Shown here one piece after another: positions 14,331-48,762 of a stretch of DNA of 64,000 bases. Numbering within the stretch: position 1 is the stretch's first letter; each line of letters starts with the position of its first letter. The notes beneath the pieces were generated by a model. That model saw nothing but the letters and a program-made list of their open reading frames with translations, did not search any database and was not told the origin of the DNA. The DNA is taken from assembly GCA_951406725.2 (NCBI GenBank), contig OX597814.1, positions 115,816,001 to 115,880,000 of the forward strand, in the 5' to 3' direction. This stretch comes from Octopus vulgaris. Lineage: Eukaryota. A program made the translations under genes and the position numbers.

Positions 14331-16078
14331 TGATTCTTTATTACCCACTAGGGGCGACACAGAGGGGGACACCAAAAGACATGGGGACATAGAACATTAT
14401 AATTAAAATTTATGAAAAATGAATTAAGTGAAAGAAAATGATATTATGAAAGCGATACTAACGGCCCCGTCCGTTAGCATCACTTACCTGTCCTTTGTTT
14501 TTCATCGTCACTTGAATGTTCTTTGCCAATACGAATAAATTCCATATCCATTCTTACTCCGAAATACTCATCCATATTTTCCACGAATTCATCGCTCATT
14601 CTTATATCTTTCACCTCCCAATTCTCCCTTTCACACCTCACCATAAACTCATCTATGTTCTTCTTTTCAATCACAGCATACCTAGTCTCACCAACTTCAT
14701 ACCATTTATACTCTTCCATTAGACTTTTAACTTCTTTCTGTTCAGTCATAGTACAAATGTACGGCCTGATATCGATTTCAATCTCTTGTCTGTGTGTATT
14801 ATTTTTTTTCTTTTGTTTTCTTGTTGGGGGGGAGCGGGTGGGTTCAATGTCTGCATGGATAGGGTGGGACTCAGAGGGTGTGGGTGGTTTTGGGGTAGAT
14901 TGGTGTTCCATGTTATTTTCTTTTCTTCGTATTCTTCTCTTCCTCTTATTTCCAGCTTCCTTCCATTTCTGTGTATTCTCTTCCTCTTCTACTGTCTCCT
15001 TCTCCTCTGGTTTCTGCTTCTCTCTGTGTGGTTCGGAATCCATTTCTTTCCCTGGGGGAGACAGAAGGCTCTTATGTGACCCCTCAGGCCACACTTGTAA
15101 CAACGTGGAGCTCTGCCCTCCACCCACACTCTCATGATCACGTCTCCCAATCTGATGCTTTCCGCCAGGTCCACCAGTACCTCGGTCTCTGCCTGTACGT
15201 TCAGCTCCACTGTTACGCCTCTCCAGCCCTCGGACTTAACCGAGGCATGGAGAATATCCACTTCGTCCTCGTGGCCGCTGATCACAGCCGCCACAATCCA
15301 CTCTGCCTCCACGTTTGGTGGCACTCCCTCCACCCTTATTCGTGTAATCCTTCTGTTTAAATACGTAGGTAAAAGTGTTACCTTTTCTGACTTCACCGCC
15401 TTCGCCGCCATCTTCCTCGCTGCAGACTCACTTTTAAAATGCACAACTACGGTACCGTACTTGGATCCTCGAGTCAGAAAATTAATTTCCTCCTTAGTTC
15501 TTCGCAGGGCCTCCTCTATCCACTCCATGGTTACAACTTCTACCCTCTTCCTTTCGTTTGCGAACACCCTGTAAATAATGGTCCTCTTATCATACCATTC
15601 TTTTCTCCTGGGTGTCGGTGCTAGTTCCACCTCACCGCTTTCCTTTTTCATGTATTTCTGGTAACTTGGTAGCTTGGCCAAGTCGACCCCTTTCTCTTCC
15701 GCCTTCTTGGTTACACCGGCATAGGTATAACCCAGCTTCTCGTCCAATTTCCTTGCTGCCATTTCTAGCTCCTTCTCAGACGTAGACAAGTCTGATAAAG
15801 ACTCGAAAACTCTAGCCTTTTCTTCCATCAGCTTCATTGTAATTGCCTGTTCCAGTTCCTCATCTGTCGTGGACAAGTCTGTTAGAGACTCATAGTCCAT
15901 TTCCTTCTGTCTGACAGACCGAAAACGGCCGCCAAAACAGAAAAAGTGTAACGCGCAGAACGAGCGAAACGCGAAACCGCATCAACGCCGTTCTGAATTT
16001 CCACAACAACAACAACGCTTTTTGTTCTTTTTTACCGAATTTTCAGGAGCCGAAAAAAACACAACCGACCAAATGGTT
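14331..16078 (-). mobile_element. ORF1-only non-autonomous non-LTR retroelement (HAL1-like), element A
   Basis: One gag-like ORF (15900-14480, one frameshift in a C-run at ~15055) with a CYKCGLRGHIRAFC knuckle and no EN/RT. It ends in the shared tail GCCCCTAGTGGGTAATAAAGAATC. Confidence 0.8.
14480..15900 (-). CDS. ORF1/gag-like protein (RRM-like region, CCHC zinc knuckle, charged linker, C-terminal domain); one frameshift
   Basis: Join of ORFs 14989-15900 and 14480-15127. The motifs RGSKYGTVVVHF and VEGRAPRC are shared with the other ORF1s in the window. Confidence 0.75.
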
Positions 16079-16140
16079 TGGTTGAATACTGAAGTCCACA
16101 CAAACACACACGCTCTCTCTCTTCATTGCCGACAAACACA

Positions 16141-16605
16141 TGCTCGCATGCTCTTTTGCTTTTTGTGGAGGGGTAGCAGACCTCTTGTAAGGCACTCTAT
16201 CTGCTGCCAAAAGCTGCTAAATGGTGGATTAGGGATGTCGTGGCTAAAAATGCGCAGACATGTGCTCAGGCTTAGGTACCTCTCGCTTTACCTGGACGGT
16301 GAGCAGGTGTGGTTTCTGTTCGTCAAGCTGTTATTCCCACAGTTCACGTCGTTTACCAAACTGAACCCATGGATCAAGTGTAGACCGAGGTTGGGCATGT
16401 GGCAGGCAGAGTGCCATTAGGCACTCGTGCTTCTCTCCCAGTTGGGCAACGCCGGTGGCGGGGGTACTGCCTCGTTCTTCTATAGAGGGTTAGTAGAGTT
16501 TAAGTGTGACGACATCCTGGGAGAAGCCCTAGGCTTTGACGAAGATCAACTGGCCAGCCTGTTCCAAAGAACATTCGGGCCGGGGCCTATGGATAATTAC
16601 CAGAA
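16141..16605 (+). mobile_element. Tx1/L1-clade LINE ORF2 fragment (post-RT region)
   Basis: LFCFLWRGSRPLVRHSICCQKLLNGGLGMSWL, paralogous to 17895-18030. Confidence 0.75.
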
Positions 16606-16606
16606 C

Positions 16607-19290
16607 ATATATAGATAGGGTTTTAATTAGAAAAACAGATAAGTGCATAGTTAAGTGTCCACAATTTCATCTAGTCAGCTACAGTGATCACAAGATGGTT
16701 ACCTGTAAGCTGACAGTAGATAAGTTACATTGACAGGGATCTGGATACTGGAAACTCAATACATTCCTTTTGGCGATTGAGGAGTACAGAAAGCAGATCA
16801 AGAAGTTAATTCAGAGGGCATTGACAGGTACCATCATTAATAATAAAAGTTGGTACGCCCTAAAATGAGCCATAAAATATGAGTCTATTAGGTTTAACAT
16901 AAGTTTAGCGAAGAAGGAAGGTAGAATAAGAGATGGTATAGTTAAAGCAGTGAAGGCGCGTGGCTTATTGGTTTGGGCATTCGGCTCACGATCGTAAGGT
17001 TGTGAGTTTGATTCCCGGCGACGCGTTGTGTCCTTGAGCAAGACACTTTATTTCACGTTGCTCCAGTCCACTCAGCTGGCAAAAATGAGTTGTACTTGTA
17101 TTTCAAAGGGTCAGCCTTGTCACTCTCTGTGTCACGCTGATTATCCCCGAGAACTATGTTAAGGGTACACGTGTCTGTGGAATGCTCAGCCATTTGCGCG
17201 TTAATTTCACGAGCAGGCTGTTCCGTTGATCGTATCAGCTGGGACCCTCGTCGTCGTAACCGGCGGAGTCTTTAGAATAGTTAAAGGGGATGGTAAAACG
17301 GATAGGTCACCGGGACATGATGGTCTTTCTTACGAGGTATATAAATGTATGCCAGACTTGTTCGGGCACCTACTGGCTAATGTGTACCTGAATGGCAACA
17401 GAAAGGGTTAATCCCCAGATCTGTGCGTCGGGGAGTGGTGACGTTGATCAGAAAGGACCCGAACAAGGGGGACGTTTTAGATCATTTCAGGCCCATCACT
17501 CTGTTAAACGCAGAAGGGAAGATTTTGGCCAAGGTTTTAGCAAAAAGACTGGCGCGTGTCGTGAATGGTATAGTCGGGGAGGCAAAGACATGTGCTATCC
17601 CAAGCAGAATCATTCAGGATAATCTCCATCGATGCCTTCAGACAGCGTTGTTGGGTGCTGGACGGAGGGACCGGTTAAATTGCTAGGAGTCTGGTTTGGA
17701 CCAGGCTTCCAGATAGAGAAGAACTGGACGGAGGTTTATAGTAGGGTAGCTGCAATAGTCAAGACCTGGTCTCGGCAGTGGTTATCCTTGAAATGGAGGG
17801 CAGAGGTGGCCAATGTGTTTATCGCATCTGTCATTATCTACTACCTGATCGTCGTGCCCTGTCCGAATTCGTGGGTGATCAGGTTGGAGAGACAACTCTT
17901 TCGCTTTTTGTGGAAGGGAAAGTCACCACTTGTGAAACGCTCTATCTGTTGTCAGAAGCTGTTGAAGGGAATTTTAGGGATACCTTGGTTAATGATGCAC
18001 ATACATGCGTTGAGGTTGAGGCATCTCTAGATTCTCCTGGGTGGTGAACGGGTGTGGTCTCCGCTGGATAGACAAATGTTCCCCGAGTTCAAAAGTTTTT
18101 GTGAACAGGAAGCCTGGTGTTCTCGTAGACCGAGGTCGAGTAAGTGGCATATAAGGGTGTCGTAAGGCCCTCCTGCTATTCCAGCGCTCTGGCAACGCCA
18201 GCGGTTGGGGTTCTACACGTTTTTCATATAGTGGGATGGTAGAGTCTGAATGTGACGAGGGCCTGGGAGCGACTCTAGGTCTCGGGTATATTCAACTTGA
18301 CAGTCTATTCCACCGTACATTCGGGTTGAGAACATTGGACTATTTCCAAAAGTCCTTGATCTGGCAATGTTACAGGGGCGCCTTGCCCGTTTGGGATAAA
18401 CTCGCAAGACATGGAAAGTCTCACTCTCCGACCTGTCCAAGATGCGGGTGGGGGGACCGTCCTTCACGCTATTGTCCAGTGCCCGGAGATATCTGAAATG
18501 TAGATTTATACTGAACATCAGTTGTCCGGCGAAGGGGGAGTACAGCTGTCGACTGGGTCAATTGTAAAAATGACCGACCGGAATTTTTAACAAATGAACG
18601 TAAGAATTGTTTTCTCACTGTTGTTGCAATAGCGAAAGAGGCAGTATGGAAGACTAGGATAAAAGGGATTAAGACGGGTAACTTTATCTCCGGCCACGAG
18701 TCAAGATTGTTTTTCACTTTTCACTTGAAAAGGAAGGTGTGGCTGTTGTTGTTGTTAAGCAACAAGACAGGTAAGGGTGATTAGGTGATGGTCTATGGCT
18801 TAGGGGCGGGAGACCCCATACCTTGAAAAAAAAAAACTTTGGCCGTCTTGTTGTAGTCGGGGCTCTTCGTTGACGCCCGACACCACAGGGAGGTGGCCCT
18901 CAAAGTCGCTGGAAATGGAGATCTTCAGGTTCAAATTCTTGGACGGCGGAAGGTGTAGCTGGAGAAGAGATGCCTGTCGGAGATTGTGTTAAAAAATAGA
19001 TGGAAGCATGTTGCACGAGTGCTGTGCGTGCAAGGAACCATGTGAATAGGCTATAGAAGAAAAACAAGAGATGAAAGAAGTACCAGCGATAGATCGGGGC
19101 TTATGAGGTCGGAGCGTGGCCTGATCATCGCTACATTTCTGTCTTGTTTGTATTGTGTATCTCATTCGATTCTTATATATTTTATATAATTTTATTTTCA
19201 GATTTATGTAATATCATAACATGTTACTGACCGCAATCAGTTGTTTTGTCCCATTCTTTGTATTGACCCCTGTGGGTAATAAAGAAATTG
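16607..19290 (+). mobile_element. Internally deleted, degraded Tx1/L1-clade LINE (EN C-terminus, RT N-part, C-terminal region, 3' UTR and tail)
   Basis: YIDRVLI...YSDHKMV...GYWKLN; SPGHDGL; FRPITLLNAEGKILAKVLAKRL; VKLLGVWFG; CPRCG. The YADD-containing RT core is missing. The tail is GACCCCTGTGGGTAATAAAGAAAT. Confidence 0.85.
16948..17276 (+). mobile_element. tRNA-derived SINE inserted in the LINE
   Basis: A/B boxes and a 10-bp TSD ATAGTTAAAG (16938-16947, 17277-17286). Confidence 0.85.
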
Positions 19291-19526
19291 AAATTGGTAT
19301 TTTGTCTGTCTTTACGTTCTGAGTTCAAATTCCGCCGACGTCGACTTTGCTTTTCATCCTTTCGGGGCGATGAATTAAGTAGCAGTTGCTGGGGTCGATC
19401 TAATCGGCTGGCCCCCTCCCTCAAAATTTCGGGCCTTGTGCCTAGAGTAGAAAAGAATGCTTGTATCAAAATATATCTTTATGTTTCCCATGGTTGCTTT
19501 CAGATTTTCGCACAAGGTGAACACAC

Positions 19527-19712
19527 TTAGAAGGGAGGAGAAAATTTAATTACAGCAACCCTCAGTGCTCAAGTGGCACATATTTCGCCGACCCCCAAAT
19601 GATGAAAAGCAAGGTCGACCTCGCGGAATTTGAGCTCAGAACATAACGAGTCGGAAGAAATGCCGTTATACATTTTGTCCGGTACGCTAACAATTCAGTA
19701 CACTCGCCGCCT
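19527..19712 (-). mobile_element. SINE of the family at 4943 (another partial copy at 19295-19457, +)
   Basis: Reverse complement of the GGCGGCGAG...GAGTTCAAATTCC SINE body. Confidence 0.65.
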
Positions 19713-20840
19713 TCTGTCAATACTTTTAAATTCTTCACTTGTTTTTCTTTCCTGACGTATCGTTTCTCTGTTGAGCTTCCGTTTAGTTATGAGTCCCTTT
19801 TATGTTTATTGATTATTCTCTTGAACTGTTTCTTTCTGAAATTCACTACCATCGTCTTGTTTTCTTCTGCACTATGATATTTAGTTAAGCAAGGTTTCTG
19901 TCTATTGATACCGACTGAATCCATAGGTTCCTTTTCCCCACTTCTTATTTGTTACTTACGCTACTGTGGCATCAAGCATTTTAGGGGAACAAAATCCTAT
20001 TAAAATATGTATTTACCAAAATGTTTATCAATATTTCTGTATATAACTTTAGACATTTGACTCACCGTAGCTCCTCATCTAATAAAAAAAATAATATAAA
20101 CTATGATAATACCGTAGATTACTAGTAAAGCATCGAAATTTACAAATTGATTTTATAATTACAACTGTATTTTCTATCCATAATATTAATTGTGAATCCT
20201 TCTCCATCAAAAAAAAAGAAAAGAAAAAAAAAGTAAAACAGCAACAAACACAAAAAAACAAATAAAAATTAAGTATATCCTGCTTATCGATTTTTATATC
20301 GGAACAAGTATTTTTGGCTCAGCTTAGAAGTCCGGAGCATTTGTCACCGAAGAGATCAAATCATATTGGAACACTGTGTCAGGCGATCCAATGGTGTAGT
20401 TCATTCTCACTGTTTTCTCACTATTGTTGCAATAGCGAAAGAGGCAGTATGGAAGACTAGGATAAAAGGGATTAAGACGAGTAACTTTATCTCCGGCCAC
20501 GAGTCAAGATTGTTTTTCACTTTTCACTTGAAATGGAAGGTGTAGCTGTTGTTGTTTCATTCAACCAATTGAGCTCAGAACTTAACGAGTCGGAAGAAAT
20601 GCCGTTATGCATTTTGTCCGGCACGCTAACGATTCTGTACGCTGGCCGCCTTCTGTCAATACTTTTAAATTCTTCACTTGTTTTTCTTTCCTGACGTATC
20701 GTTTCTCTGTTGAGCTTCCGTTTAGTTATGAGTCCCTTTCACTAACCACGAGAGAATGAAAGCAAGTAGACCACAACAGAAAAACATTAAAGAAAAGACA
20801 GCCGGGGAAATTTCTGTTATTTTTATAACTCTTAAAATTA

Positions 20841-21246
20841 TTAAAATTCCATATCATAAACCACAATTCCTGATGACTGATAACCTATTTGTTCATGGAC
20901 ACTAATAGAAAGAATATTTTCTGGTTGAATTTTGACACTTGGCGTTATTCCTGCTTCAATATACTTAGCTGATAACATAGAGATCAGCGCTTTTGTGCAG
21001 CCTCGTCCGCGATAATTAGCATTGACATGTAGATACCCGATGGTTCCACAATCGGTCCCCAATCCATAAGCAACTACTTTCTCAATGGAATTACACAAAC
21101 ACACATTTAGGAACGTGTTTATAAGAACATTGATATATTCCTTAGTACTGTCCACTTGTTCGGTTGAAGATTGTTCCCAGGTGTCTGCGATATCGTCCAA
21201 ATGTTCTGTGGTAAGGATTCCTACGTTCAGATTTGTTGGTGCTACA
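20841..21246 (-). CDS. GNAT-family (glycine N-acyltransferase/FR47-like) terminal exon, copy 1
   Basis: Motif A GTIGYLHVNANYRGRGCTK and motif B ENILSISVHEQIGY. Acceptor CTTTTCTTTTGCAG, stop TAA. Confidence 0.8.
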
Positions 21247-22159
21247 CTGCAAAAGAAAAGACTTGAGCATTAACGACACTTCTATTATGATCTTCGTTAC
21301 TTTATAATTATCATCAATGAATATCTCATTAGGATTTATAATTATCATGAATAAGTACCACGTTAAAAATGACAGTAAAATAAGATATATTCGCATTAGG
21401 AGATAATTAACGCCTTCACAAGTGGTTTACGCACATACTAACACCTTCACAATGTCTAAGGTGTGTTTATTTGAGAAATGATTTGACTTGATATTTTAAG
21501 TCGCATCTGAAACAATTAGGTCAATGAGGAGCCATGAACACATGCATAAACAAGTTTGTGTGGCTGTAGGTGCGATTGTGTGGTTATTAGTTTAGTTGTA
21601 AGGTCGCTGGCCTGGCTCTGGTTGAATGCAGGGTTTGCGTAGTCGCAAATCTCTCATGTACTGCTTCCAAGTTCCACATCGTAGTACAGTGCCTCACTTG
21701 ACGGACTAAAGCACATGATGGTCTGGTGTTGACACTGCATCACCGGACGAGCTATGGCAACGGCCAGGGCGGAGGAGTCTTAATGGGACCAACAACCAGG
21801 TGTCCGTGACTGGATGCGACCCACACTATACTTCTTCGACATCGGCTAGCAGTCAAAAGAGACAGCTCCACTTACAGTGTCTTTCATAGATGCAAGTGCT
21901 TGGGCTTCAGGTTAGCACCCCGTCCTCGTTGAAATCTCATACTATGAAAATAGTTCGAAGTGGAAACTCTGACTACCTCATGTGTCTCCCGACCTTGGGG
22001 CACCTGAGTCTAAAGTCTTAATCACAGGTAGTTCTGTGTTGTATAAAAGCCAACTAAAGAGATAACAGTTACATTGATTCTTTCTTTAGGCAATGGTTAT
22101 ATGCAAATATTTCTTCTCCCAAAGGAATCAAATGAAATCAAAATATAATTTTTAGTTAC

Positions 22160-22277
22160 CTGCTTTGAAGGGAATTTTCGTCTAAATGATACAAGTTGTA
22201 CATCTCGCATTTTTTAACAAATTTGTCTTTAGATTTCATATATTCTTCTACAACAGTTTTTCTTTCAGAGAGAATGG
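22160..22277 (-). CDS. GNAT-like penultimate exon, copy 1
   Basis: Bounded by AG/GT, open (ILSERKTVVEEYMKSK...LDENSLQS), and its phase-2 end matches the terminal exon. Confidence 0.6.
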
Positions 22278-22395
22278 CTGAATTGAGAGAGAGATAGAAG
22301 AAAAGGTGACACCGCATTAGTAATTCTACATTTCCCTCCTTTCACGATAAATATTTATAGTATATGATATAATACTATACACATGCACGTATATA

Positions 22396-23260
22396 CGAGA
22401 GGGTGCTGTAAAGTTCCTGGATTTAAGAGTAACGCGAAAAGGTAGAGCTGTTACCTTTACAGGGGAAGAAGGACAACTGTTAAGGAGAAGATATGCAAAA
22501 AATCATGATGGTATACTATATTTTTATTTTTATTTTTGCAGATTTAACGTATGATTGCAGGTCCCACAGTGGATTTGGGTAAAACTGAAGCACATCGTGT
22601 TATGAAGTTCTTCTTTTTGTAAAGCAAAGTAGCTGCGGAAAACCATGGCGAGATAAAGGAAATTTTGAAAGCTGACTGCCCATCTTACTCCACAGTAAAA
22701 ATCTGGGTGCCAATGTTTCGGACTGGTAATCAACTTCCCCGACTACGGAGGACAAAGCCGACTCTGTGCACGTCATCATGCTCGAGGACCGCCGGATTTC
22801 AACTAAAGTCATAGCTGAAACTATGGGGATTTTGTGCGAAAGAATTGGTCACATCATCCATAAAATTATTCTGGACATGAGAAAGCTTTCAACGCAATGG
22901 GTGCCGAAATACCTGAACGCAGATCAGACGCGTTTTAGAGTGACGACATCAAAGGCGATTCTGGATCGGTTACAACAGGCGAAGCTGATTTTATGGCAAG
23001 CTTAATCTCCCTGGATGAAAGCAGGTTTCACCATTGTGACCCTCAGACTAAGCAGCAATCAATGGAAGGACGAAACAGCGGTTCAACGCGTCTCAAGAAG
23101 TTTCGGACCTAGAAGTTAGCCAAAAAGGTTCTGGCTTCAGTGTTCTGGGAGAAAGACGGGATACTCCTCATAAAATACATACCAAATGGTCGCACCATCA
23201 ATGCAGAATACCACATGTCTCTTTTAGACGAACTGTGTGATGCTTTGGAGCAGAAACACT
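22396..23260 (+). mobile_element. Degraded mariner transposon (left TIR and transposase relic)
   Basis: TA|CGAGAGGGTGCTG(T/A)AAAGTTCC end; RKLSTQWVPKYL, LDESRFHH, KVLASVFW, TINAEY motifs with stops and frameshifts. Confidence 0.85.
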
Positions 23261-24589
23261 GAACCGTTCCAAAGTGATAAAAGTGAGACTAAATTCTTTT
23301 CAAAACAGACCAAAATCGAAACCGGATTGCAGGTTATGCCTCGAAGTAACTTACCGTTTATTCCGTGACGTTCACCGTAATTTTTTAAATAAAGAACAAA
23401 AAAAAAAGTTTTTTAAATTATAAGTTTTTTTTCCGATTAGATGCGTCTCTGGTATATTTCCCACTGAATTCCTTGTCTAGAGAATTACAGTCATACTCAC
23501 TCCAGTCTTTTATGGTTTACTTTTATCTTTCACAGTGATTAGATTGCGGTCATGCTAGAGCACTGCTTTTAATGATGTAGTCAAACAAATAATTTAAAAC
23601 TGAGTAGTTTTTGCGCCAGTCTTTTTTTGGGTGTTGGTTCTGAATCGCTAAGTTATGGGAAAAGGACGTCAATAAAACCACTACTGGTTGTCAAGTTGTG
23701 CTCTCTCTCTCTCTCACGTACATGCGCGCGCGACAGGCTTGTTTCAGTTTCCCTCTGCGAAATTCACTCACAATGCTTTAGTTGGGTTATAGTAGAAGAC
23801 ATTTGCCCATGCTGCCGTACAGCGAGACTGAACCTGAAACCACTTGGTTGGGAAGCAAGTTCGTTAATCACACAACCTATGCCTATGAATAAAGTGTAAA
23901 AGAAATCCTGCAAATTTGCATACAGGCAAGCAATATTTAATAAATATAGATACGGAGCGGCGGTTTGGATTTTTATTGTGGAAATTTGCAGAATGGGTAA
24001 CCGACAGTCATCCATGCCGGTGAGACGACGTCACCCATCTGGTTCTGAGATTAGATCAGGATTTTCATCCCTAAAACGTATCACAGGAAAAAACTATTAT
24101 TTTGAAAATTTAGTTCTTGAAGGGAACAATGTAAAGAGCCTGGCTTATGTAGGGGCTTTAAAGGTAAGTGATTTGCTTTTTATTTTCCCTTTTGGTTACG
24201 AATAGTTTATATTTTTATTAACGATAAAGGTTGAAAGACAGAGGGGATAGCACAAGATGTGGGGGAATTCGCCAACGAATGATAAACGGAATATTTACAA
24301 ATTTAGAATAAAAATAACGATGAGGAAGTGAGGGACGGATGTGACCCCACAAACCACTTTCCACCGCTGGACCTTTTCAGTACTTTTATGTCATCCCTTA
24401 AGTAGACACCTTCACTTTCAACATGCATGCCACTTTCATTTTGGTTTCGAATGTGAACAAACAGAATCTTCGAAGTCACCGTCACCAGTCTTCTTGTAAA
24501 AGTATAATTATGTACTCTACGAAAAAGTGAGTAATTCTTCAGTTTAAATGTAAAATTGTTTTTTTTTATTAAGATAGTTTGACATAAAG

Positions 24590-25245
24590 CTTGCAGAATC
24601 GTTAGCATGCCGGGCGAAATGCTTAGTGGCATTTCGTCTCTCTTTACGTTCTGAGTTCAAATTCCGACGAGGTCGACTTTGCCTTTCATCCTTTCAGGAT
24701 CGATAAATTGAGCACCAGTTGCGTGCTGGAGTCGATCTAATCGACTTGCCCCCTCCCCCAAATTTCGGGCCTTGTGCCTAGAGCAGAAAAGAATATTATA
24801 TCTCAGCATGAGACGTCAAACTGGCAGAATCGTTAGCATACCGGGCAAAATGCTTAGCGGCATTTCGTCTGTTTACGTTTTGAGTTCAATGCCATTTGGG
24901 GCCGACTTTGCATTTCATCGTTTTGGGGTCGATAAACTGTCTCAGTTGAGAATTGGGGTAGCTGTACTTGACTTAACCCCTCCCCTTGTATTGCTGGTCT
25001 TGTGCCAATTTTTGAAGCCAATTACACAACACAATATAAGGCAGCGAGTTCGGAATATCGTAAAGGAGCTGGACAAAATGTTTGGCATTTTCCCTGAGTC
25101 TTTATGTTCCAAGTTCAAATTCTGCAGAGGTGAATCTTGCCTTTCATTGTCTTGGAATCGATGAAATAAGTAACAGCCGAGTACTGGGATGGATTAAATT
25201 GACTACTTCCTCTCAAAATCACTGAACTTGTGTCGAAAGTAAAAA
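24590..25245 (+). mobile_element. Cluster of three degenerate SINE copies in patatin intron 1 (duplicated at ~50942-51600)
   Basis: Repeated GCAGAATCGTTAGC...GAGTTCAAAT bodies. Confidence 0.7.
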
Positions 25246-25605
25246 GAATTATGACTCGACATAAATATAAATCCATTTGTATGCGAGTTTCAACTGCTTC
25301 CCATTATTTCTACCGATCTAAAGGAGTCAGTTCCTCTTTAAATATTTTGAATTGACACTAATCTAAATTGCTCTACCTCAGTATTTTTATCAATAGGTGC
25401 TGGACAAAGTTGGAATCTTAGGGAAACTGAAAAGATTCGCTGGTGTAGGAACTAGTGGTGTCATAGCTTCTCTATTAGCTGCCGATTTTGATTGCGATAC
25501 AGTCCAGAGGTTGTTGAACGAGCATATTGATAATTTGCTATTTGGTAAGACTTTAAATCATAAACATTTTTGTACCCTGTTGCAATTTGTTTTTTAAACT
25601 AATTT

Positions 25606-26027
25606 GGATCTTTTCGGTTTGAACAGCAGTTTTAAAAAATAATTTCCACGTAACTAAACACTTTAAAACTTCCTATCCTGGTAGAATGTGTTTCTAAAAC
25701 ATCTTTTTCTCTTGGCTTTATTGAGAAAATTCTATAGTTTGTAAGATATTTGGGTTTTTTTCTTCAATTTCTGCTATTTCAACCAATCAATGACGTCTAT
25801 TGAGGTAAAAAAAACATTGTGCCGTATGAATATGTCCCTCGTTTAAGAAACAGATTGGGTTTATTTACATTTCTGAAGACCAAAAAGATACCCTTCCCCC
25901 ACCCCTAACCTAACCCTAACCCTAAAACAGATTGAAATGCAATAGATCGATACTAGGTTCATAATTATGGGTGACAATTTCATATGACACCGCTAGAAAA
26001 AAACTGCCGTTCAAACCGAAAAGATCC
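25606..26027. mobile_element. MITE family M, chimeric copy (a half copy follows at 26226-26469)
   Basis: Both TIRs are present. The left part matches 51959-52225 and the right part matches the reverse complement of 53278-53435. Confidence 0.88.
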
Positions 26028-26753
26028 AAATAGGCTTCACGCAGAAAAAATACTAGCACGTCAAGATACAGTTACGTACCGCATGTGTTAAGGGATTTTA
26101 AACCTTTATATACGAACACTTTTTGTTTTGTCAGAAATAGAAAGTCCGTCTGACAAAGAGAAAGAATAAAAAAACTGATTCTTGTGCCTAACTGTTTCTG
26201 TAACAGCTCCGAAATAGTAAAACACAAACGAGGGACATATTCATACGGCACAGAATGTTTTCACCTCAATAGACGTCATTGATTGGTTGAAATTGCAGAA
26301 ACTGAAGAAAAAAAAGAACCCAACAAATATCTTACAAACTATAGAATTTTCACAATAAAGCCAAGAGAAAACGATGTTTTATAAACACATTCTACAAGTA
26401 TACGAAGTTTAAGCGTTTAGTGACGTGGAAATTATAAAAAAAAAATTGCCGTTCAAACCGAAAAGATCCGCTTATTTTGCTATACACCATTTACAAATAT
26501 GATATGCATTTGTATCTTAATTGAAAATTATGAAGGCAGTTATTTCTCTTTAGATACTCAATGATGTAATGGAAAAGTGAGGTCGTAATCCGGGAAGGAA
26601 GTTTTTGGAATGGTTTGGCAACATCTTCAGCATTAAATTTGGCAATGCTGACATCACCTTCAGCCAGATAAGTCTACCTGATATTTTCACCACAAATTTG
26701 GCCAATAGGCTATAAATACAGTTAAAAAAAATTTTTTATTGTCCACCCCCATC

Positions 26754-29463: not shown

Positions 29464-29543
29464 AACCTAACCTAACCTAACCTAACCTAACCTAACCTAA
29501 CCTAACCTAACCTAACCTAACCTAACCTAACCTAACCTAACCT
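29464..29543. repeat. (AACCT)16 = (TTAGG)n tract
   Basis: Seen directly, as a perfect 80-bp run. Confidence 0.97.
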
Positions 29544-30774: not shown

Positions 30775-30874
30775 NNNNNNNNNNNNNNNNNNNNNNNNNN
30801 NNNNNNNNNNNNNNNNNNNNNNNNNNNNNNNNNNNNNNNNNNNNNNNNNNNNNNNNNNNNNNNNNNNNNNNNNN
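30775..30874. other. Assembly gap (100 N)
   Basis: A run of exactly 100 N inside the satellite. Confidence 1.
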
Positions 30875-33800: not shown

Positions 33801-35609
33801 TTCTTCTCCCCTCAACGAAACTAAGCTAAGCTAAGCTAAGCTAAAACATTATGCTGGCCGTCTTTTTCTTCTCCCCTCAACGAAACTAAGCTAAAACATT
33901 ATGCTGGCCGTCTTTTTCTTCTCCCCTCAACGAAACTAAGCTAAGCTAAGCTAAGCTAAGCTAAAACATTATGCTGGCCGTCTTTTTCTTCTCCCCTCAA
34001 CGAAACTAAGCTAAGCTAATCTAAGCTAAGCTAAAACATTATGCTGGCCGTCTTTTTCTTCTCCCCTCAACCCGAAACTAAGCTAAAACTAAGCTAAAAC
34101 GCATTGCTGGCCGTCTTTTTCTTCTCCCCTCAACAAAACTAAGCTAAAACATTATGCTGGCCGTCTTTTTCTTCTCCCCTCAACGAAACTAAGCTAAGCT
34201 AAGCTAAGCTAAGCTAAACTAAGCTAACACATGCTGGCCGTCTTTTTCTTCTCCCCTCAACGAAACTAAGCTAAGCTAAGCTAAGCTAAGCTAAATCATT
34301 ATGCTGGCCGTCTTTTTCTTCTCCCCTCAACGAAACTAAGCTAAAACATTATGCTGGCCGTCTTTTTCTTCTCCCCTCAACGAAACTAAGCTAAGCTAAG
34401 CTAAGCTAAGCTAAAAAACATTATGCTGGCCGTCTTTTTCTTCTCCCCTCAACGAAAGCTAAGCTAAGCTAAGCTAAGCTAAGCTAAAACATTATGCTGG
34501 CCGTCTTTTTCTTCTCCCCTCAACGAAACTAAGCTAAAACATTATGCTGGCCGTCTTTTCTTCTCCCCTCAACGAAACTAAGCTAAGCTAAGCTAAGCTA
34601 AAACATTATGCTGGCCGTCTTTTTCTTCTCCCTCAACGAAACTAAGCTAAGCTAACCTAAGCTAAGCTAAAACATTATGCTGGCCTTCTTTTTCTTCTCC
34701 CCTCAACGAAACTAAGCTAAAACATTATGCTGGCCGTCTTTTTCTTCTCCCCTCAACGAAACTAAGCTAAGCTAATCTAAGCTAAAACATTATGCTGGCC
34801 GTCTTTTTCTTCTCCCTTCAACGAAACTAAGCTAAAACATTATGCTGGCCGTCTTTTTCTTCTCCCCTCATCGAAACTAAGCTAAGCTAAGCTAAGCTAA
34901 GCTAAAACATTATGCTGGCCGTCTTTTCTTCTCCCCTCAACGAAACTAAGCTAAGCTAATCTAAGCTAAGCTAAAACATTATGCTGGCCGTCTTTTTTTT
35001 TCTCCCCTCAACGAAACTAAGCTAAAACATTATGCTGGCCGTCTTTTTCTTCTCCCCTCAACGAAACTAAGCTAAGCTAATCTAAGCTAAGCTAAAACAT
35101 TATGCTGGCCGTCTTTTTCTTCTCCCCTCAACGAAACTAAGCTAAAACATTATGCTGGCCGTCTTTTTCTTCTCCCCTCAACGAAACTAAGCTAAGCTAA
35201 GCTAAGCTAAAACATTATGCTGGCCGTCTTTTTCTTCTCCCCTCAATGAAACTAAGCTAAGCTAATCTAAGCTAAGCTAAAACATTATGCTGGCCGTCTT
35301 ATTTTTCTCCCCTCAACGAAACTAAGCTAAAACATTATGCTGGCCGTCATTTCTTCTCCCCTCAACGAAACTAAGCTAAGCTAAGCAAAAACATTTTGCT
35401 GGCCGTCTTTTTCTTCTCCCCTCAACGAAACTAAGCTAAAACATTATGCTGGCCGTCTTTTTCTTCTCCCCTCAACGAAACATTAAGCTGCTGGCCGTCT
35501 TTTTCTTCTCCTAAGCAACGAAGCTAGCATTATGCTGGCCGTAAGCTTTTTCTTCTCCCCTCAACGAAACTGGCTAGCTGGCTGCCTGGCTAGCTGGCTA
35601 ACGGCTAAG

Positions 35610-36202
<593 letters not shown>

Positions 36203-37128
36203 CTCCCCTCAACGAAACTAAGCTAAGCCTGCTGGCCGTCTTTTTTCTTCTAAGCTAAGCTCAACTAAGTAAGCTAAGCTAGTAGCTAAACTAAGCTAAA
36301 ACATTATGCTGGCCGTCTTTTTCTTCTCCTCAACGAAACTAAGCTAAGCTAAGCTAAGCTAAGCTAAAACATTATGCTGGCCGTCTTTTTCTTCTCCCCT
36401 CAACGAAACTAAGCTAAAACATTATGCTGGCCGTCTTTTTCTTCTCCCCTCAACGAAACTAAGCTAAGCTAATCTAAGCTAAGCTAAAACATTATGCTGG
36501 CCGTCTTTTTCTTCTCACCTCAACGAAACTAAGCTAAAACATTATGCTGGGTGTCTTTTTCTTCTCCCCTCAACGAAACTAAGCTAAGCTAAGCTAAGCT
36601 AAGCTAAAACATTATGCTGGCCGTCTTTTCTTCTCCCCTCAACGAAACTAAGCTAAAACATTATGCTGGCCGTCTTTTTCTTCTCCCCTCAACGAAACTA
36701 AGCTAAAACATTATGCTGGCCGTCTTTTTCTTCTCCCCTCAACGAAACTAAGCTAAGCTAAGCTAAGCTAAAACATTATGCTGGCCGTCTTTTTCTTCTC
36801 CCCTCAACGAAACTAAGCTAAAACATTATGCTGGCCGTCTTTTTCTTCTCCCCTCAACGAAACTAAGCTAAGCTAAGCTAAGCTAAGCTAAAACATTATG
36901 CTGGCCGTCTTTTTCTTCTCCCCTCAACGAAACTAAGCTAAGCTAAACTAAGCTAAAAAAACATTGTGCTGGCCGTCTTTTTCTTCTCCCCTCAACGAAA
37001 CTAAGCTAAGCTAAGCTAATACATTAAAGAGGTGTTGGTCGTCTTTTTTTTTCACTTCACGAAACTAAGCTAACCTCTCCTGAGATGTTTGCCTTGTCAC
37101 CAAACTATCCTCTGCTGAGTTGTACACT

Positions 37129-37898
37129 TTACTGTGTACAATGTAACGTATTAAGTTTCCAGTAACCGGATCCTCTATTTTTAACCTTTTCTATATCAAC
37201 CTTACAAGTGACCATTTTATGATCACTGTAGCTGATGGGGTAAAACTGTGGACACTTAACTATTTTACTGTCTACTTTTCTAATTAGTATTCTATCTAAA
37301 TATAACCTGGATGATCCGTCGCTGTTTGAATATGTCCACAATGGAGCGTTCGGAAATTCCAGCCTATAAGGATCTGCTAGCTCAAAGCGGCTTAGCAGTT
37401 CCATGAAGCCACTGTTACCTTTTCTATCTGGACGCGAGCCAACACAATCTACATCCGCTTTGCAAATTGTGTTAAAGTCTCCTAGCACAACTAATGAATG
37501 CGAAGTACCAAGAAAGTTTTCTAGTTCACGAAAATAATCACTTTGCCCTGTATGGTTGGGTGCGTAAATTGCAACCAGTCTGATAACTTTACCATTACTG
37601 TACGTCAAATCCATGACGACTAGCCTACCTTCTGGATCTGCAAAAATTAACTTTTTCTCAGAAACCCGGTTTTTTTTATTAGGACCAACACCCCACTTCC
37701 GCCAGTAGGACTGCCAGGAGAGAAAAAACTCTCGTAGCCGTCAAACAGTGGGAGCAGACCTCTTGGCCCCTCTAACCGGGTTTCTGTAGCAACAATAACA
37801 TCTAAATTACGCGACCTGATATCATGCAGGAAGCGACCTTGCTTCCAGCCTGCTCCCAGGCCGCGCACTTTCAAACAACCAACATAAATGCAATCCAT
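37129..37898 (-). pseudogene. LINE ORF2 apurinic-like endonuclease domain (frameshifted, truncated)
   Basis: GCLKVRGL, ATETRL, AIYAPN, LGDFN, LDRIL, SDHKMV and GYWKLN motifs. The frameshift lies in an A-run near 37670. Confidence 0.88.
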
Positions 37899-37907
37899 TA
37901 CTTACCT

Positions 37908-39289
37908 TTATATCAGTGGTTCGGTTTTCTCTTGTTCTTCCAACTCTTTTTCTGGGCCTCGTGGGGGAGTCTGACGTAGGCCCTCGAATATATGTGGAGA
38001 TGTCACCTCCAATCTAAGTGGGCCTACGTCGTGGAAGAATTCGGATTTTATCCGCCCGTAATCCTTCCGGCCTATTCTGTAGATCACAAAGTCATTTTTC
38101 TTTTCCACTTTCTCCACCTTGGCCATAGCAGCCAACACGTTTCCTAGTCTGCTATTCGCTGCCTTTACGGCCATATATGAGTCCATTGTCTCTCTCTTCT
38201 TTTTTAAAATTATTCTGGGAGGGGTGGTATCCGTTTTTCTTTTTTTTTTTTCGGTAATTTTTTTCCACCCCTCCTCATTTATCTTTTCCTCGCTCTTGTT
38301 CTCCTCCGCCGCTGGTTCTGCTGTCACCGTCACCTCCACACCTTCGGTCTTCCCTTCTGGGCCGTCCGACGTTGCTTCTGGTGACACTTCTTTTTCTCTT
38401 GGCTTCGGTGCTTCCTGCGGTTTGGGTTTGGGTTGGCATTCCGCCCTTACATGACCCTTCTTGCCGCAGCCGAAGCACCTCGGCCTCCTGCCCTCCACGA
38501 AAACAGTTATTTTTTCCTCTTCGCTAATTTTTACTGTTTCTGGAATTTCTTCCAGTGTTTGTGTCTCCGCCTGAATGGCTATCACTATCTTTTGTCCTTT
38601 CCAGAACTCCTCTTCTTCCACTGTGGCCTGGAGGATGTTTATTTTTTCCTCCAGGCCTACCATCACTGCTGCCACCAGACATTCTGCATCTGCCTCTGGG
38701 GGAATGTTGTTCATTGTGATTTTTGATGTCCGCTTTCCTCTATATAATGGTAATAGAACGATGTTTTCTGCTTTGAAAGTCTCCATTGATAGTTTTTTCG
38801 CTATCTCTTCAGAGGTAAAATGCACCTCCACTGTGCCGTATCTTTTACCTCTGTTTATATATGTTATTTTGTCCATTATTGGTTTCAAACATAACTCTAT
38901 TTTTTTCTCCTCGATTTTCTGAATCATTTTTGTAGCTGTGTTGTACGTTTTGTAAATAATTCTTTTCCTCTCTATATCTTCATGTTTCTGTACGTCTGCG
39001 ACCACAGTCACTTCCGTGCCCTCTTTCTTTACACTGTCTGCGAATTTTTCTAGATTTTCAACGTTTATTGTTTTAATTTTTTTCCCAGCTACTTCAGCGA
39101 ATTTTTCGCTGGAGTTGATGCTGGTATTGATTTTTCTATTTTTTTGGGCAACGCCGCCTCCTTTCTCTTCGGCGATAACGCCTCTTTTTTTCTTGGCGAC
39201 AACGCCTCTTTTTTTCCTGATGTCAACGCCGGGTATTCGTCCTCGCTCGTCACGGGCGAATAGGAGATGGGGGACTCCATCTTAAACAA
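37908..39289 (-). CDS. LINE ORF1 (gag-like, CFGCGKKGHVRAEC knuckle); probable frameshift near 39080
   Basis: ORFs 39089-39289 and 37908-39011, with RGKRYGTVEVHF and VEGRRPRC. Confidence 0.8.
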
Positions 39290-39505
39290 ATGGCTTTAAC
39301 AAGCCTTTGGAGATTCCAAAATAATTGTAGTTTTCCCCCACGGAGGGGGGAACACCAACGCGAAGTCCTCGCGCGAAGGCTGACTTCTTCAGTTAAACAA
39401 CAGTAAACAAACAGGTATACAGACAATATAGAAAAACAGAGATAATACTATGAGAGCAAAATATATAACTTACTAACAGACGCAAAAATTGATTTCAGAC
39501 ATGTG

Positions 39506-41279
39506 ATTTTATTACTACCCACAAGGGGCGAACATAGATGGGACAATACAATCGGGGAACTTAAAATAAGAAAGCGAATGACAAGAAAAGGAAAAAATAA
39601 AAGTAAAAAATGACATATGAAAGAATATTTACAATGAGATGTAAATGCCCACTCGATCCCCGGAATCGAGAGGTTACATTTTCGTCACATATATTTCACA
39701 AAATTTTCTTTTTTCTCTTTTTCTTTTTTCTTCTCACAATTCTATACATATTCTATCATAGTTTCCACTTCTCTGAAGTCTATCACTGAGCCCTCAAGCT
39801 GCCGCTCTCTCATTCGAACCTTCGTGTAAAATATTACACTCTCTCCGGCAGCTCTGAGGAACTCAGCGACTCTTTCTTCGGGGATTAGAGCAGTCTCCTG
39901 CCACCGATCGGTCATCCTGTTGACCCATATATGTCCCTCCGTTTTACATGTCAAGTCTTTCATTTCAGGGCAGAAATGGAAGGTTACTAACTTGTAGTAA
40001 TAGTAATCTTGTTTCCGTCCTACGTTTTCCTTCATTTTCCTTTTCGGACTTATTTCTTCCTTGTTCTCCTCTCTTTGTTTCTCTCTTTCTCTCTTTTTGC
40101 CTTCTTTTCTTTCTCCTTCCTTCTCTTGTCTTTTTGGTTCTTTGTCTGTTCTCTCTTTCTCTCGTGTTTTATGTTCCTTTTCTTTTTCCTTTTTGTGTGC
40201 CGTCTTTTCTTTTCGTTTGATTCTGATCTCTCTCTTGTTTTTTTCCTATTGTTTCTTTTTCCTTTTTTTTTTTTCCTGACTCTGTTTTGGTTCTATTTCT
40301 TTCTTTTCTTTTATTTCTTTTTCCTTCATTGACTTATTATTTCCTTTCTCTTGTTGTTTTGTTTCCTTTTCTATGTTTTCTTTCTCATTTACAGTATTCT
40401 TCTTTTCTTCAAGTTCCTGCTCGCACTCCGCTACGAATTCGTATAACGGGCACTCTTTTTTAATGTGCCCCCTTGTCCCACACAAGTAACAGTTTGGTTT
40501 TCTCCCCTCTACAATTACGCTGAGGGTTTTTTCCTCTTCAATTTCAATTTTGTATGGGAACCTTTCAATATCCTCTTTTGTGACCATCAACCACAATTCT
40601 ACCCCATATCCTCTCCAGTTTACCGCGTTGGACTCCTTAATAGATTCCACCTCCACTTCCTCTTCTGCTGCTCCTAGAATAGCTGTTGCCAGCCATTCTG
40701 TTTTCACTTCTGTGGGTATATTCGGGATTTTAACCCGGACCCCTCTTCTTCCCTTGTATGAGGGCCACATTGTGAATTTTTCGGCTCTTAGTACGGTGGT
40801 AGCCAGTGAGGCTGCAATTTCTTCCGTTGCACATCTCACCTCCACCGTACCAAATTTCTTGCCTCTACTCACGTAGGTTATTTTCCCCATTATGTCTCCC
40901 AAACATTTTTCAATTTCGACTATCTCCACTCTTGCCAGTTTCTTCGTATTTTTGTCTTGGGTTCTGTATGTCACTGTCTTGCTTTCTTTATCCTCTTTTG
41001 CTTTCGCGGGGGGGGGGGGGGATTAGCTTCACGCTATCACCCTCCCTTTTGAAGAGCTTTTCATATTCTTTGAGTTTATCCTTCTCAAAGAAAACCTCCT
41101 TTATGATTATCGACGAATCGTTATTTTTCCCGGTGACCCCCGCGTAAGTCGCCATGACTAGAGGGTCAATTCACCTTCTTCGGAAGGTTTCCACACGTGG
41201 AGGCAAACGCCTCGCGCGATATCAAATCAATTTACACAGAAACAATTTCAACGTCTAGTCACAGATAACAACACGCATA
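39506..41279 (-). mobile_element. ORF1-only retroelement B (ORF 41155-39742, homopolymer frameshifts)
   Basis: CYLCGTRGHIKKEC knuckle, no EN/RT, shared 3' tail, bounded by 15-bp direct repeats. Confidence 0.85.
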
Positions 41280-41294
41280 GATTTCAGACACGTG

Positions 41295-43058
41295 ATTTTA
41301 TTACTACCCACAAGGGGCGAACATAGAGGGGACAATACAATCGGGGAACTTAAAATAAGAAAGCGAAATGACAAGAAAAGGAAAAAATAAAAATAAAAAT
41401 GACAAATGAAAGAATATTTACAATGAGATGCAAATGCCCACTCGATCCCCGGAATCGAGAGGTTACATTTTCGTCACATATATTTCACAAAATTTTCTTT
41501 TTTCTCTTTTTCTTTTTCTTCTCACAATTCTATACATATTCTATCATAGTTTCCACTTCTCTGAAGTCTATCACTGAGCCCTCAAGCTGCCGCTCTCTCA
41601 TTCGAACCTTCGTGTAAAATATTACACTCTCTCCGGCAGCTCTGAGGAACTCAGCGACTCTTTCTTCGGGGATTAGAGCAGTCTCCTGCCACCGATCGGT
41701 CATCCTGTTGACCCATATATGTCCCTCCGTTTTACATGTCAAGTCTTTCATTTCAGGGCAGAAATGGAAGGTTACTAACTTGTAGTAATAGTAATCTTGT
41801 TTCCGTCCTACGTTTTCCTTCATTTTCCTTTTCGGGCTTATTTCTTCCTTGTTCTCCTCTCTTTGTTTCTCTCTTTCTCTCTTTTTGCCTTCTTTTCTTT
41901 CTCCTTCCTTCTCTTGTCTTTTTGGTTCTTTGTCTGTTCTCTCTTTCTCTCGTGTTTTATGTTCCTTTTCTTTTTCCTTTTGTGTGCCGTCTTTTCTTTT
42001 CGTTTGATTCTGATCTCTCTCTTGTTTTTTTCCTATTGTTTCTTTTTCCTTTTTTTTCCTGACTCTGTTTTGGTTCTATTTCTTTCTTTTCTTTTATTTC
42101 TTTTTCCTTCATTGACTTATTATTTCCTTTCTCTTGTTGTTTTGTTTCCTTTTCTATGTTTTCTTTCTCATTTACAGTATTCTTCTTTTCTTCAAGTTCC
42201 TGCTCGCACTCCGCTACGAATTCGTATAACGGGCACTCTTTTTTAATGTGCCCCCTTGTCCCACACAAGTAACAGTTTGGTTTTCTCCCCTCTACAATTA
42301 CGCTGAGGGTTTTTTCCTCTTCAATTTCAATTTTGTATGGGAACCTTTCAATATCCTCTTTTGTGGCCATCAACCACAATTCTACCCCATATCCTCTCCA
42401 GTTTACCGCGTTGGACTCCTTAATAGATTCCACCTCCACTTCCTCTTCTGCTGCTCCTAGAATAGCTGTTGCCAGCCATTCTGTTTTCACTTCTGTGGGT
42501 ATATTCGGGATTTTAACCCGGACCCCTCTTCTTCCCTTGTATGAGGGCCACATTGTGAATTTTTCGGCTCTTAGTACGGTGGTAGCCAGTGAGGCTGCAA
42601 TTTCTTCCGTTGCACATCTCACCTCCACCGTACCAAATTTCTTGCCTCTACTCACGTAGGTTATTTTCCCCATTATGTCTCCCAGACATTTTTCAATTTC
42701 GACTATCTCCTCTCTTGCCAGTTTCTTCGTATTTTTGTCTTGGGTTCTGTATGTCACTGTCTTGCTTTCTTTATCCTCTTTTGCTTTCGCGGGGGGGGGG
42801 ATTAGCTTCACGCTATCACCCTCCCTTTTGAAGAGCCTTTCATATTCTTTGAGTTTCTCTTTCTCAAAGAAAACCTCCTTTATGATTATCGACGAATCGT
42901 TATTTTTCCCGGTGACCCCCGCGTAAGTCGCCATGACTAGAGGGTCAATTCACCTTCTTCGGAAGGTTTCCACACGTGGAGGCAAACGCCTCGCGCGATA
43001 TCAAATCAATTTACACAGAAACAATTTCAACGTCTAGTCACAGATAACAACACGCATA
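41295..43058 (-). mobile_element. ORF1-only retroelement C (ORF 42934-41530, homopolymer frameshifts)
   Basis: Nearly identical to B and head-to-tail with it. Confidence 0.85.
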
Positions 43059-43073
43059 GATTTCAGACACGTG

Positions 43074-44835
43074 ATTTTATTACTACCCACAAGGGGCGAA
43101 CATAGAGGGGACAATACAATCGGGGAACTTAAAATAAGAAAGCGAAATGACAAGAAAAGGAAAAAATAAAAATAAAAATGACAAATGAAAGAATATTTAC
43201 AATGAGATGCAAATGCCCACTCGATCCCCGGAATCGAGAGGTTACATTTTCGTCACATATATTTCACAATAATTTTCTTTTTTCTCTTCTTTCTTCTCTC
43301 TCTTCTCACAATTTTATACGTATTCCATAATACCTTTCAAGTCTCTAAAGTCAATCACTGATCCCTCAGGCAGCCGCTCTTTCATTCGAACACCCGTGTA
43401 AAAAATTACACTCTCTCCAGCTGCTCTGAGGAACTCAGCGACTCTTTCTTCGGGGATCAGAGCAGTCTCCTGCCACTGATCAGTCATCCTGTTGACCCAC
43501 ACATGTCCCTCCGTACTACATGTCAATTCCTTCATTTCGGGGCTGAAATGGAAGGTTATTAACTTGTAGTAATCTTGTTTCCGTCCTACGTTTTCTCTCG
43601 TTTTTCTTTTCGGGCTTACTTCTTCCTTGTTCTCCTCTCTTTGTTTCTCTCTTTCTCTCTTTTTGCCTTCTTTTCTTTCTTCTTCCTTCTCTTGTCTTTT
43701 TGGTTCTTTGTCTGTTCTATCTTTCTCTCGTGTTTTATGTTCCTTTTCTTTTTCTTTTTGTGTGCCGTCTTTTCTTTTCGTTTGGTTCTGATCTCTCTCT
43801 TGTTTTTTTCCTGTTGTTTCTTTTTCCTTTTTCTTTTCCTGACTCTGTTTTGGTTCTATTTCTTTCTTTTCTTTTATTTCTTTTTCCTTCGTTGACTTAT
43901 TATTTCCTTTCTCTTGTTGTTTTGTCTCCTTTTCTATGTTTTCTTTTTCATTTACCGTATTCTTCTTTTCTTCAATTTCCTTCTCATACTCCGCTATGAA
44001 TTCGTATAACGGGCACTCTTTTTTAATGTGCCCCCTTGTCCCGCACAAGTAGCAGTTTGGCTTTCTTCCCTCTACAATTACACTGAGGGTTTTCTCGTCT
44101 TCGATTTCTATTCTATAGGGGAACCTTTCAATGTCCTCTTTTGTGGCCATCAAACACAGTTCTACCCCATATCCTCTCCAATTTACTGCGTTGGACTCCT
44201 TAAAGGATTCCACCTCCACTTCCTCTTCTGCTGCTCCTAGAATAGCTGTTGCCAGCCATTCTGTTTTTACTTCTGGGGGTATATTCGGGATTTTAACCCG
44301 GACCCCTCTTCTTCCCTTGTATGAGGGCCACATTATAAATGTTTCCGCTCTTAGAACAGTGGTAGCCAGTGAGGCTGCAATTTCTTCCGTTGCACATCTC
44401 ACCTCCACCGTACCAAATTTTTTTCCTCTACTCACGTAGGTCGATTTATCCATTATGTCTCCCAGACATTTTTCGATCTCTGCTATCTCCACTCTTGCCA
44501 GTTTCTTTGTACTTTTGTCCTGGGTTCTATACGTTACAGTTTTGTTTTCTTTGTCCTCTTTTGCTTTCGCGGGGGGATTAGCTTCACGCTATCACCCTCC
44601 CTTTTGAATAGTTTTTCATATTCTTTGAGTTTACTCTTCTCAAAGAAAACATCCTTCACGATTATTGCCGAATCATTATTATTCTTTCCCGTGACCCCCG
44701 CGTAAGTCGCCATGACTAGAGGGTCAATTCACCTTCTTCGGAAGGTTTCCAAACGTGGAGGCAAATGCCTCGCGCGATATTAATCACTTTACACAACAAA
44801 ATTTCAACGTCTAATCACAGATAACAACACGCATA
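43074..44835 (-). mobile_element. ORF1-only retroelement D (ORF 44713-43314, one frameshift in a C-run)
   Basis: A diverged sister of B/C with 392 uninterrupted codons to the stop. Confidence 0.85.
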
Positions 44836-48526: not shown

Positions 48527-48644
48527 CTGCTTTGAAGGGAATTTTCGTCTAAATGATACAAGTTGTACATCTCGCATTTTTTAACAAATTTGTCTTTAGA
48601 TTTCATATATTCTTCTACAACAGTTTTTCTTTCAGAGAGAATGG
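48527..48644 (-). CDS. GNAT-like penultimate exon, copy 2
   Basis: Bounded by AG/GT, open and phase-compatible with the terminal exon. Confidence 0.6.
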
Positions 48645-48762
48645 CTGAATTGAGAGAGAGATAGAAGAAAAGGTGACACTGCATTAGTAATTCTACATTT
48701 CCTTCCTTTCACGATAAATATTTATAGTATATGATATAATACTATACACATGCACGTATATA

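Follow-up and report, generated by a model that had tools for sequence, protein, structure and literature searches.

A poly(A)-free 3' tail shared by LINEs, ORF1-only elements and a SINE at repeat-specific insertion sites in Octopus vulgaris

The stretch analysed here, hereafter the window, comprises 64,000 nucleotides (nt) of Octopus vulgaris DNA (assembly GCA_951406725.2, contig OX597814.1, positions 115,816,001 to 115,880,000 of the forward strand; coordinates below count from its first letter) and harbours three kinds of retroelement which end in one tail of about 45 nt: long interspersed nuclear elements (LINEs), elements encoding only the first open reading frame (ORF1) of a LINE, and a short interspersed nuclear element (SINE). 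The SINE occupies 4944..5179 (+ strand) and shows A-box-like and B-box-like motifs, the tail at 5136-5179 and a short imperfect target-site duplication (TSD), TATTCAA. ORF1-only element A lies at 14331..16078 (- strand), with ORF1 at 15900-14480 (one frameshift in this copy) and its tail at 14331-14370. Next to it are a separate fragment of a related LINE ORF2 (16150..16605, + strand; about 70% identical to the LINEs S and E) and LINE S itself (16598..19289, + strand), an old, deleted and interrupted copy with pieces of the endonuclease, reverse transcriptase and C-terminus and with its tail at 19246-19290. The 3' part of the SINE holding this insertion (19295..19458, + strand) begins at the target GTATTT, between the A box and the B box. 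Further along, an array on the - strand begins at the target site of a non-coding Helitron-like host repeat of about 1.1 kb (5' part, 44851..45548) and consists of the D-family units C (43074..44850; 92% identical to D), D (41295..43073; tail from 41295) and B (39506..41294; 99% identical to D), followed by the last unit, the 5' 2.4 kb of LINE E (37129..39505; ORF1 and endonuclease), the 3' part of which is missing here.

All six tails (A, B, C, D, LINE and SINE) reported in a preliminary description of this DNA were recovered with the same positions and strands, and the pattern CCCCN{1,5}GTGGGTARYAA matches the window exactly six times, at these tails, and not at all in 100 dinucleotide shuffles. 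The tails are true 3' ends of elements, as copies elsewhere in the 2.8 Gb genome searched stop at the same base. The D family does so in 30/30 best genomic matches and the A family reaches the tail in 29/30, while for LINE S the tail is visible in 29/30 loci (the stretch of the remaining one excluded it) and joins SINE sequence at, or immediately beside, a single position; being counts of best matches, these figures are biased to full-length copies. The claimed lack of poly(A) also holds, with an A-run of at least 10 after only two of the 365 distinct tails in all fetched DNA, both of which nonetheless keep the terminal ATCA. An origin of the tails as secondarily inserted SINE pieces was rejected, because each family joins its own tail variant to its own 3' untranslated region (UTR); LINE and ORF1-only tails occur without any other SINE sequence and differ between families.

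The element bodies had been described as unalignable, which is correct for DNA (only a 57-nt match between D and E and an endonuclease match between S and E were found) but not for protein: the ORF1s of A, B-D and the LINEs are homologous, with 26-30% identity and a CCHC knuckle in common, and the ORF1-only and LINE bodies are therefore related. Element A measures 1.75 kb and B, C and D 1.78 kb; copies with open ORFs of 469-472 amino acids exist (470-472 for A, in copies other than that of the window), and many frameshifts in other ORF1-only copies sit in homopolymer runs. The ORF1s form two clades with support of 100, D/D2/D3 and A/A2/A3, both apart from the sampled LINE ORF1s, outside which A and D branch with weak support (60). 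On the ORF1 core, the ratio of nonsynonymous to synonymous divergence (dN/dS) is 0.08-0.27 in nine ORF1-only pairs with finite dS, a tenth pair being saturated for dS. Both A and D represent old lineages of ORF1-only elements that are subject to purifying selection, and at least six such families, belonging to two old lineages, coexist in this genome. Each protein search of the genome returned at least 150 copies, and arrays of 16-17 units span 26-31 kb. Arrays of at least 16 ORF1-only units with mostly open ORF1 cores are located at C5:100951746-100977797, C10:47668814-47699579 and C7:100087423-100120027. A and D have the organisation of HAL1-type elements (ORF1 only, then a 3' UTR and tail, in many copies), and an O. 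bimaculoides protein has 52% identity to the D ORF1 core, while proteins recorded under Octopus vulgaris match the D ORF1 at 98-100%. Among 20 divergent A-like or D-like copies fetched, 14 show the tail after ORF1 and none carries a clear ORF2 of its own downstream; a parent LINE giving rise to A or D by deletion was not found among the sampled LINE ORF1s and these 20 copies. Two LINE copies (L243, with ORF1 followed by the tip of ORF2, and L251) keep ORF1 and tail and have lost most of ORF2, and are possibly nascent ORF1-only elements.

LINE E, which lies directly behind the ORF1-only array and was overlooked in the preliminary description, carries the closest tail to the array units when full-length. 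The complete element is 5.2 kb long, with an ORF2 of 1131 amino acids and a D-like tail: E and D tails are 94-98% identical over the last 47 nt in most copies (ORF1s only about 29% alike), and over the last 48 nt E and D agree at 94% as against 75% for young S and D. Among full-length E copies, 16/20 end at one site, with the 13-bp junction CATGGAGGAAAGC, of the 1.1 kb repeat with Helitron ends. Identity reaches 98.7% between E bodies but only 86.3% between their flanks, so that the insertions are independent. Non-autonomous Helitrons start with 5' TC, end with a 3' hairpin followed by CTAG and insert between A and T; in the host repeat, 5' TC was present in 6/6 and the 3' hairpin with CTAG in 6/6 of the copies inspected, lying between A and T. 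E, D, D2 and most A/A2 copies share one site of this repeat in mixed head-to-tail arrays, and the 3' neighbours of 30 D copies, assigned by eye, were E (13), D (9), D2 (2), the bare Helitron site (3) and a second repeat (3). The probable partner of the ORF1-only array is LINE E and not LINE S. Apart from this site, two A copies with the tail variant of the window (L062 and L063) have a common site in a repeat resembling a MITE (miniature inverted-repeat transposable element), which we take to be of Mariner type.

The 13-mers at the 5' and 3' junctions of one element often differ, those at the 5' end recur between loci, and tags of 13-17 nt, derived from earlier target sites, are strung along the 5' ends of L003-L005, L017, L018, L025 and L151. 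From this combination it appears that the element RNA starts inside the target. Contigs from four runs presumed to be RNA cover most of D, but, being uninformative on RNA ends, strand or poly(A), they were set aside as evidence.

LINE S belongs to a second, separately targeted set. Its young full-length relatives (5.4 kb; ORF2 of 1133 amino acids, 73% identical to that of E) lie in 18/18 cases (two of the 18 loci being one local duplicate) between SINE positions 1-60 and 48-end, and about 15 bp are repeated at the junctions. Across 11 young copies, identity is 98.8% for the LINE and 91.0% for the SINE downstream of it, with each outer SINE retaining its own TSD. A further LINE, G, uses a second site in the SINE head about 12 nt upstream of the S site (6/6 copies). 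The tail-bearing SINE itself is highly abundant, a 34-nt pattern of its tail having 43,228 exact occurrences in the genome (control 0), and over 48 nt its tail is 71-83% identical to LINE tails. In 40 loci ordered by position, a SINE starting at the S site follows 33 of 55 SINE units; adjacent units are on average 93.7% identical, as compared with 92.5% for random pairs. One SINE subfamily, with the last 19 nt and the junction of older S, accounted for 23 of 40 fetched junctions, so that the 133 matches to the pattern concerned were rejected as a count of LINE S. When tested, the proposal that the target SINE supplies the head of SINE composites failed. ARAGORN found no tRNA in the SINE, though A-box-like and B-box-like motifs are visible; a likeness to the CORE domain is presumed by us.

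The three tiers of the preliminary description (LINE, ORF1-only element and SINE) are therefore present, but the single network that it had built around the LINE at 16.6-19.3 kb was not borne out, as S targets the SINE head and the ORF1-only array shares the Helitron-like site with E. At least two target-defined networks use one inherited tail.

The tail is found well beyond these two networks. Searching with a pattern drawn from the stretch immediately 5' of it gave 292 genome matches (control 0), and the first 30 of these loci plus 20 more resolved into the tail-bearing subfamilies E1-E4, G, H and I, of which E3 occurs at a second Helitron site and E4 in another repeat. Since the tail runs through an entire radiation of related LINEs whose targets differ, much of its sharing is due to common descent. 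Pfam Exo_endo_phos, RVT_1 and zf-RVT (an apurinic/apyrimidinic endonuclease (APE), a reverse transcriptase and a C-terminal zinc motif) score above cut-offs in the E and S LINEs. Against references, the E ORF2 matched human L1 ORF2p at E=1.5e-65 and R2 at 5e-26; the references that appeared comprised L1 and R2 proteins alone, and no protein named Tx1 was among the at least 120 matches listed per search. Sequence-specific insertion with a TSD, a trait of the Tx1 clade, was seen for E (16/20), S (18/18) and G (6/6), but not for H and I; these LINEs are putative members of the Tx1 clade.

With respect to the predicted RNA structure, 93% of cells pair in an 8-bp stem model of the tail on 22 representatives. 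The preliminary description had called for a test of covariation in this stem; the closing pair does covary (GU 14, UA 4, AU 2 and GC 2, two rows being offset by one column) and is a standard pair in 174/175 non-SINE and 153/160 SINE tails, while the other pairs are invariant or changed on one side and the shuffle control is not exceeded. AATAAA is found in 182/188 non-SINE tails and in 42/177 SINE tails, the SINE figure being inflated by the pattern used; the notion that it is wholly absent from the SINE was dropped. All coding families have, in addition, a predicted upstream hairpin in the 3' UTR with a G-rich loop, which in the window lies at 14452..14483 (- strand) in A (candidate partner C-tract near 14381-14388) and at 41443-41462 in D. 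The best partner of this loop begins 49-59 nt from the 3' end in 17/17 representatives of about four lineages, the pairing beats 95% of shuffles in 9/17, and the partner of the own lineage is the best for 6/8. At one loop-partner position, lineage S passes from G-C (old) through G-U (middle) to A-U (young). The SINE tail is without the partner tract, and the LINE S of the window has private non-pairing changes in its own loop and partner. A long-range pairing between the loop and the C-tract is a candidate feature that the coding elements may have kept.

A radiation of L1/Tx1-group LINEs shares one tail, and, taken together, these data make it probable that the reverse transcriptase binds this tail and that the ORF1-only elements and the SINE are copied in trans by the LINE with the same site. 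The pairing of passenger and carrier would be strongly indicated for D with E, and less so for A with E and for the SINE with S. In such a mechanism, each LINE endonuclease would nick its own target and reverse transcription would begin at the exact end of the tail. A duplication of 13-15 bp, part of it overwritten by target-like sequence on the 5' end of the RNA, would restore the site, so that later copies could stack there. The coding RNAs are probably polyadenylated just past AATAAA, within read-through target, and poly(A) would be missing from the DNA because priming occurs on that read-through target. Retention of ORF1 by the ORF1-only elements would be expected if packaging their own RNA aids the borrowing of ORF2.

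Several observations weigh against this account. Some concern the passengers: several A copies, including that of the window (which is not at a Helitron site), lie outside the Helitron-site arrays, the A tail, at 73-79%, is no nearer to E than to the remaining families, and a weak ORF2-like match lies downstream of ORF1 at L268, a locus among the 20 divergent ones where no tail was detected. The SINE tail is nearest to an E subfamily (83%) and not to S (young 77%, old 73%), so that the link between the SINE and S rests on the target and the terminal bases. In G-type composites the head of the tail-bearing family occurs in 9/15, against 0/13 solo copies; because composites with other tails often carry this head, some SINE composites have spread as read-through dimers and not as fresh insertions. 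Moreover, 5/36 adjacent SINE pairs are at least 98% identical and may be DNA-level duplications, which may also explain the long homogeneous ORF1-only arrays. The older H and I LINEs bear the tail, and a common target was not seen for them. Finally, two-sided change affects just 1/8 stem pairs, a count reached by 303/500 shuffles, and the near-invariant CCC/GGG core could be conserved as sequence.

Three other explanations were weighed. The first, which is unlikely but retains some weight, posits one undivided network in which the ORF2 of any family reads the tail and the RNA (through read-through target and terminal bases), not the endonuclease donor, mainly sets the site. At nine exact junctions, in D bodies and one E body (L151), an alternative tail end does occur together with an alternative target, 5' ends bear strings of earlier target-like tags, and GAAAT, with which S and the SINE end, is the complement of ATTTC in the target, all as such a network would have it. 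However, E and S, with ORF2s 73% identical, are each faithful to one target in almost every young copy, and target choice in the Tx1 clade is reported to lie with the endonuclease (PMC4494074). The ends of E and D, inspected by eye, have no complement to their target, and complementarity of tail end and target as a general rule fails on these two families.

A second explanation, which is decidedly unlikely, is that the tail is shared by descent for 3'-end formation or RNA stability, that its recognition by ORF2 is relaxed, and that ORF1-only units are carried mostly in cis, by transcripts reading through into a downstream E. AATAAA in nearly all non-SINE tails and D directly upstream of E in 13/30 would fit it. 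Nevertheless, the SINE retains the tail even though 135/177 copies are without AATAAA, A copies standing alone are bordered by TSDs of their own (L063), and D ends straight on the bare target in 3/30. D and E tails, furthermore, are near-identical while ORF1 divergence is saturated, which argues that the tail has been kept matched.

The remaining explanation, that the arrays and nests reflect either assembly error or events at the DNA level, such as unequal crossover or the capture and spread of sequence by Helitrons, with the tails as inserted SINE pieces, finds some favour in the homogeneity of certain long arrays and in the 99% identity of B and D, but is already largely refuted and very improbable, since the inserts are far younger than their flanks (Helitron hitch-hiking as the main cause being rejected), the array families are just 28-62% alike in protein with unit C differing by 8%, and the tails are family-specific and free of other SINE sequence.

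Copying in trans through the shared tail by LINEs of differing target thus remains the preferred reading, and a broader formulation of it can be offered tentatively, as something rather short of an even chance. One structured poly(A)-free RNA signal would serve a community of LINEs diversified in target (the head of the passenger SINE included), in which ORF1-only lineages are long-lived by matching their tail to the current LINE and the SINE multiplies the landing site of its carrier. Swaps of the tail end would re-route passengers, and a pseudoknot between the loop and the C-tract, confined to coding members, would have gone from G-C through G-U to A-U in lineage S.

The window holds further repeats around the elements discussed. 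Element A is flanked by a 31-bp direct repeat (13803-13833 and 16079-16109), which also encloses an 80-bp duplicate of 13569-13648 and a 45-bp unit repeated 9.4 times (13832-14254); this repeat structure possibly reflects template jumping during insertion. The broken end of LINE E adjoins a satellite of 60-70 bp units (29486-37076, with a 100-N gap at 30775-30874), ahead of which lies a long microsatellite with a pentanucleotide unit (26.7-29.5 kb), and a second Helitron-type 3' hairpin in the opposite orientation (45679-45697) lies just past the 5' end of the host repeat. A 5.3 kb segment is duplicated with 98.6% identity (20737-26028 and 47100-52364) and contains an ORF for a GNAT/FR47-like acetyltransferase (47205-47666; Pfam FR47). 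A MITE-like family of about 430 bp with 30-bp terminal inverted repeats occurs at 506-929, 4227-4647, 25603-26030, 51956-52364 and 53275-53704.

Each ingredient of this system has a precedent, while the combination of known behaviours appears to be new. In the Tx1 clade, elements target other transposons, such as Xenopus Tx1L in Tx1D, and crocodilian Tx1-Mar and SINEU share Mariner-N4_AMi (PMC4494074). The octopus system resembles these in its APE-type LINEs, fixed sites in repeats, target-sharing SINE, tandem copies around a TSD and 5' extensions from donor sites. Unlike the octopus SINE, SINEU has poly(A) and shares no tail with the LINE; the targets named in the text consulted are DNA transposons, long terminal repeat (LTR) elements, RNA genes and microsatellites (SINEs and Helitrons are not among them), and it describes no ORF1-only partners, which the octopus has (PMC4494074). 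Non-autonomous LINEs with ORF1 alone, which rely on an autonomous LINE, include HAL1 (L1), HeT-A (Jockey) and Ag-Sponge (CR1) (PMC5786205, PMC5753468, PMC5537684), and the octopus elements likewise encode only ORF1. As in the octopus arrays, HeT-A stands in mixed head-to-tail arrays, with TART and TAHRE; whereas HeT-A is poly(A)-ended and telomeric, the octopus arrays are interstitial, site-specific, without poly(A) and have TSD-like junctions. Stringent pairs of the L1 clade include ZmSINE2/3 with LINE1-1_ZM and SINEX-3_CR with L1-1_CR (PMC3747384, PMC3472496). These too share a 3' end with a stem-loop, theirs showing compensatory change, but those named come from plants and algae (the algal pair being poly(A)-ended), while the octopus adds an animal L1/Tx1-group case, coding passengers and target specificity. 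The tRNA-derived octopus SINEs OK, OR1 and OR2 are similar in being abundant, with an RNA polymerase III-type head, a common middle and subfamilies with different tails, although OR1 and OR2 were set beside ours by description only; OR1 is listed as a CORE-SINE (PMC4824008). For O. vulgaris, 13 recently active L1-Tx1 families have been counted, and the portion of that report seen does not describe tails, targets or ORF1-only partners (PMC13282606). No description of the whole combination was found in the literature searched, and Repbase or older work may cover parts of it.

As regards the biology of the L1 group, young and apparently intact relatives of human L1 seem to choose their RNA by a folded tail and not by poly(A), an observation relevant to the question of whether the group was stringent in its recognition from the outset. 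Two ORF2s that are 73% identical but differ in their exact target offer a ready-made comparison with which to map the specificity of the endonuclease, while the ORF1-only lineages allow a direct test of the benefit of ORF1 to a non-autonomous element. For the octopus itself, the findings account for a major SINE as well as for arrays of 26-31 kb that gene annotation reads as protein genes.

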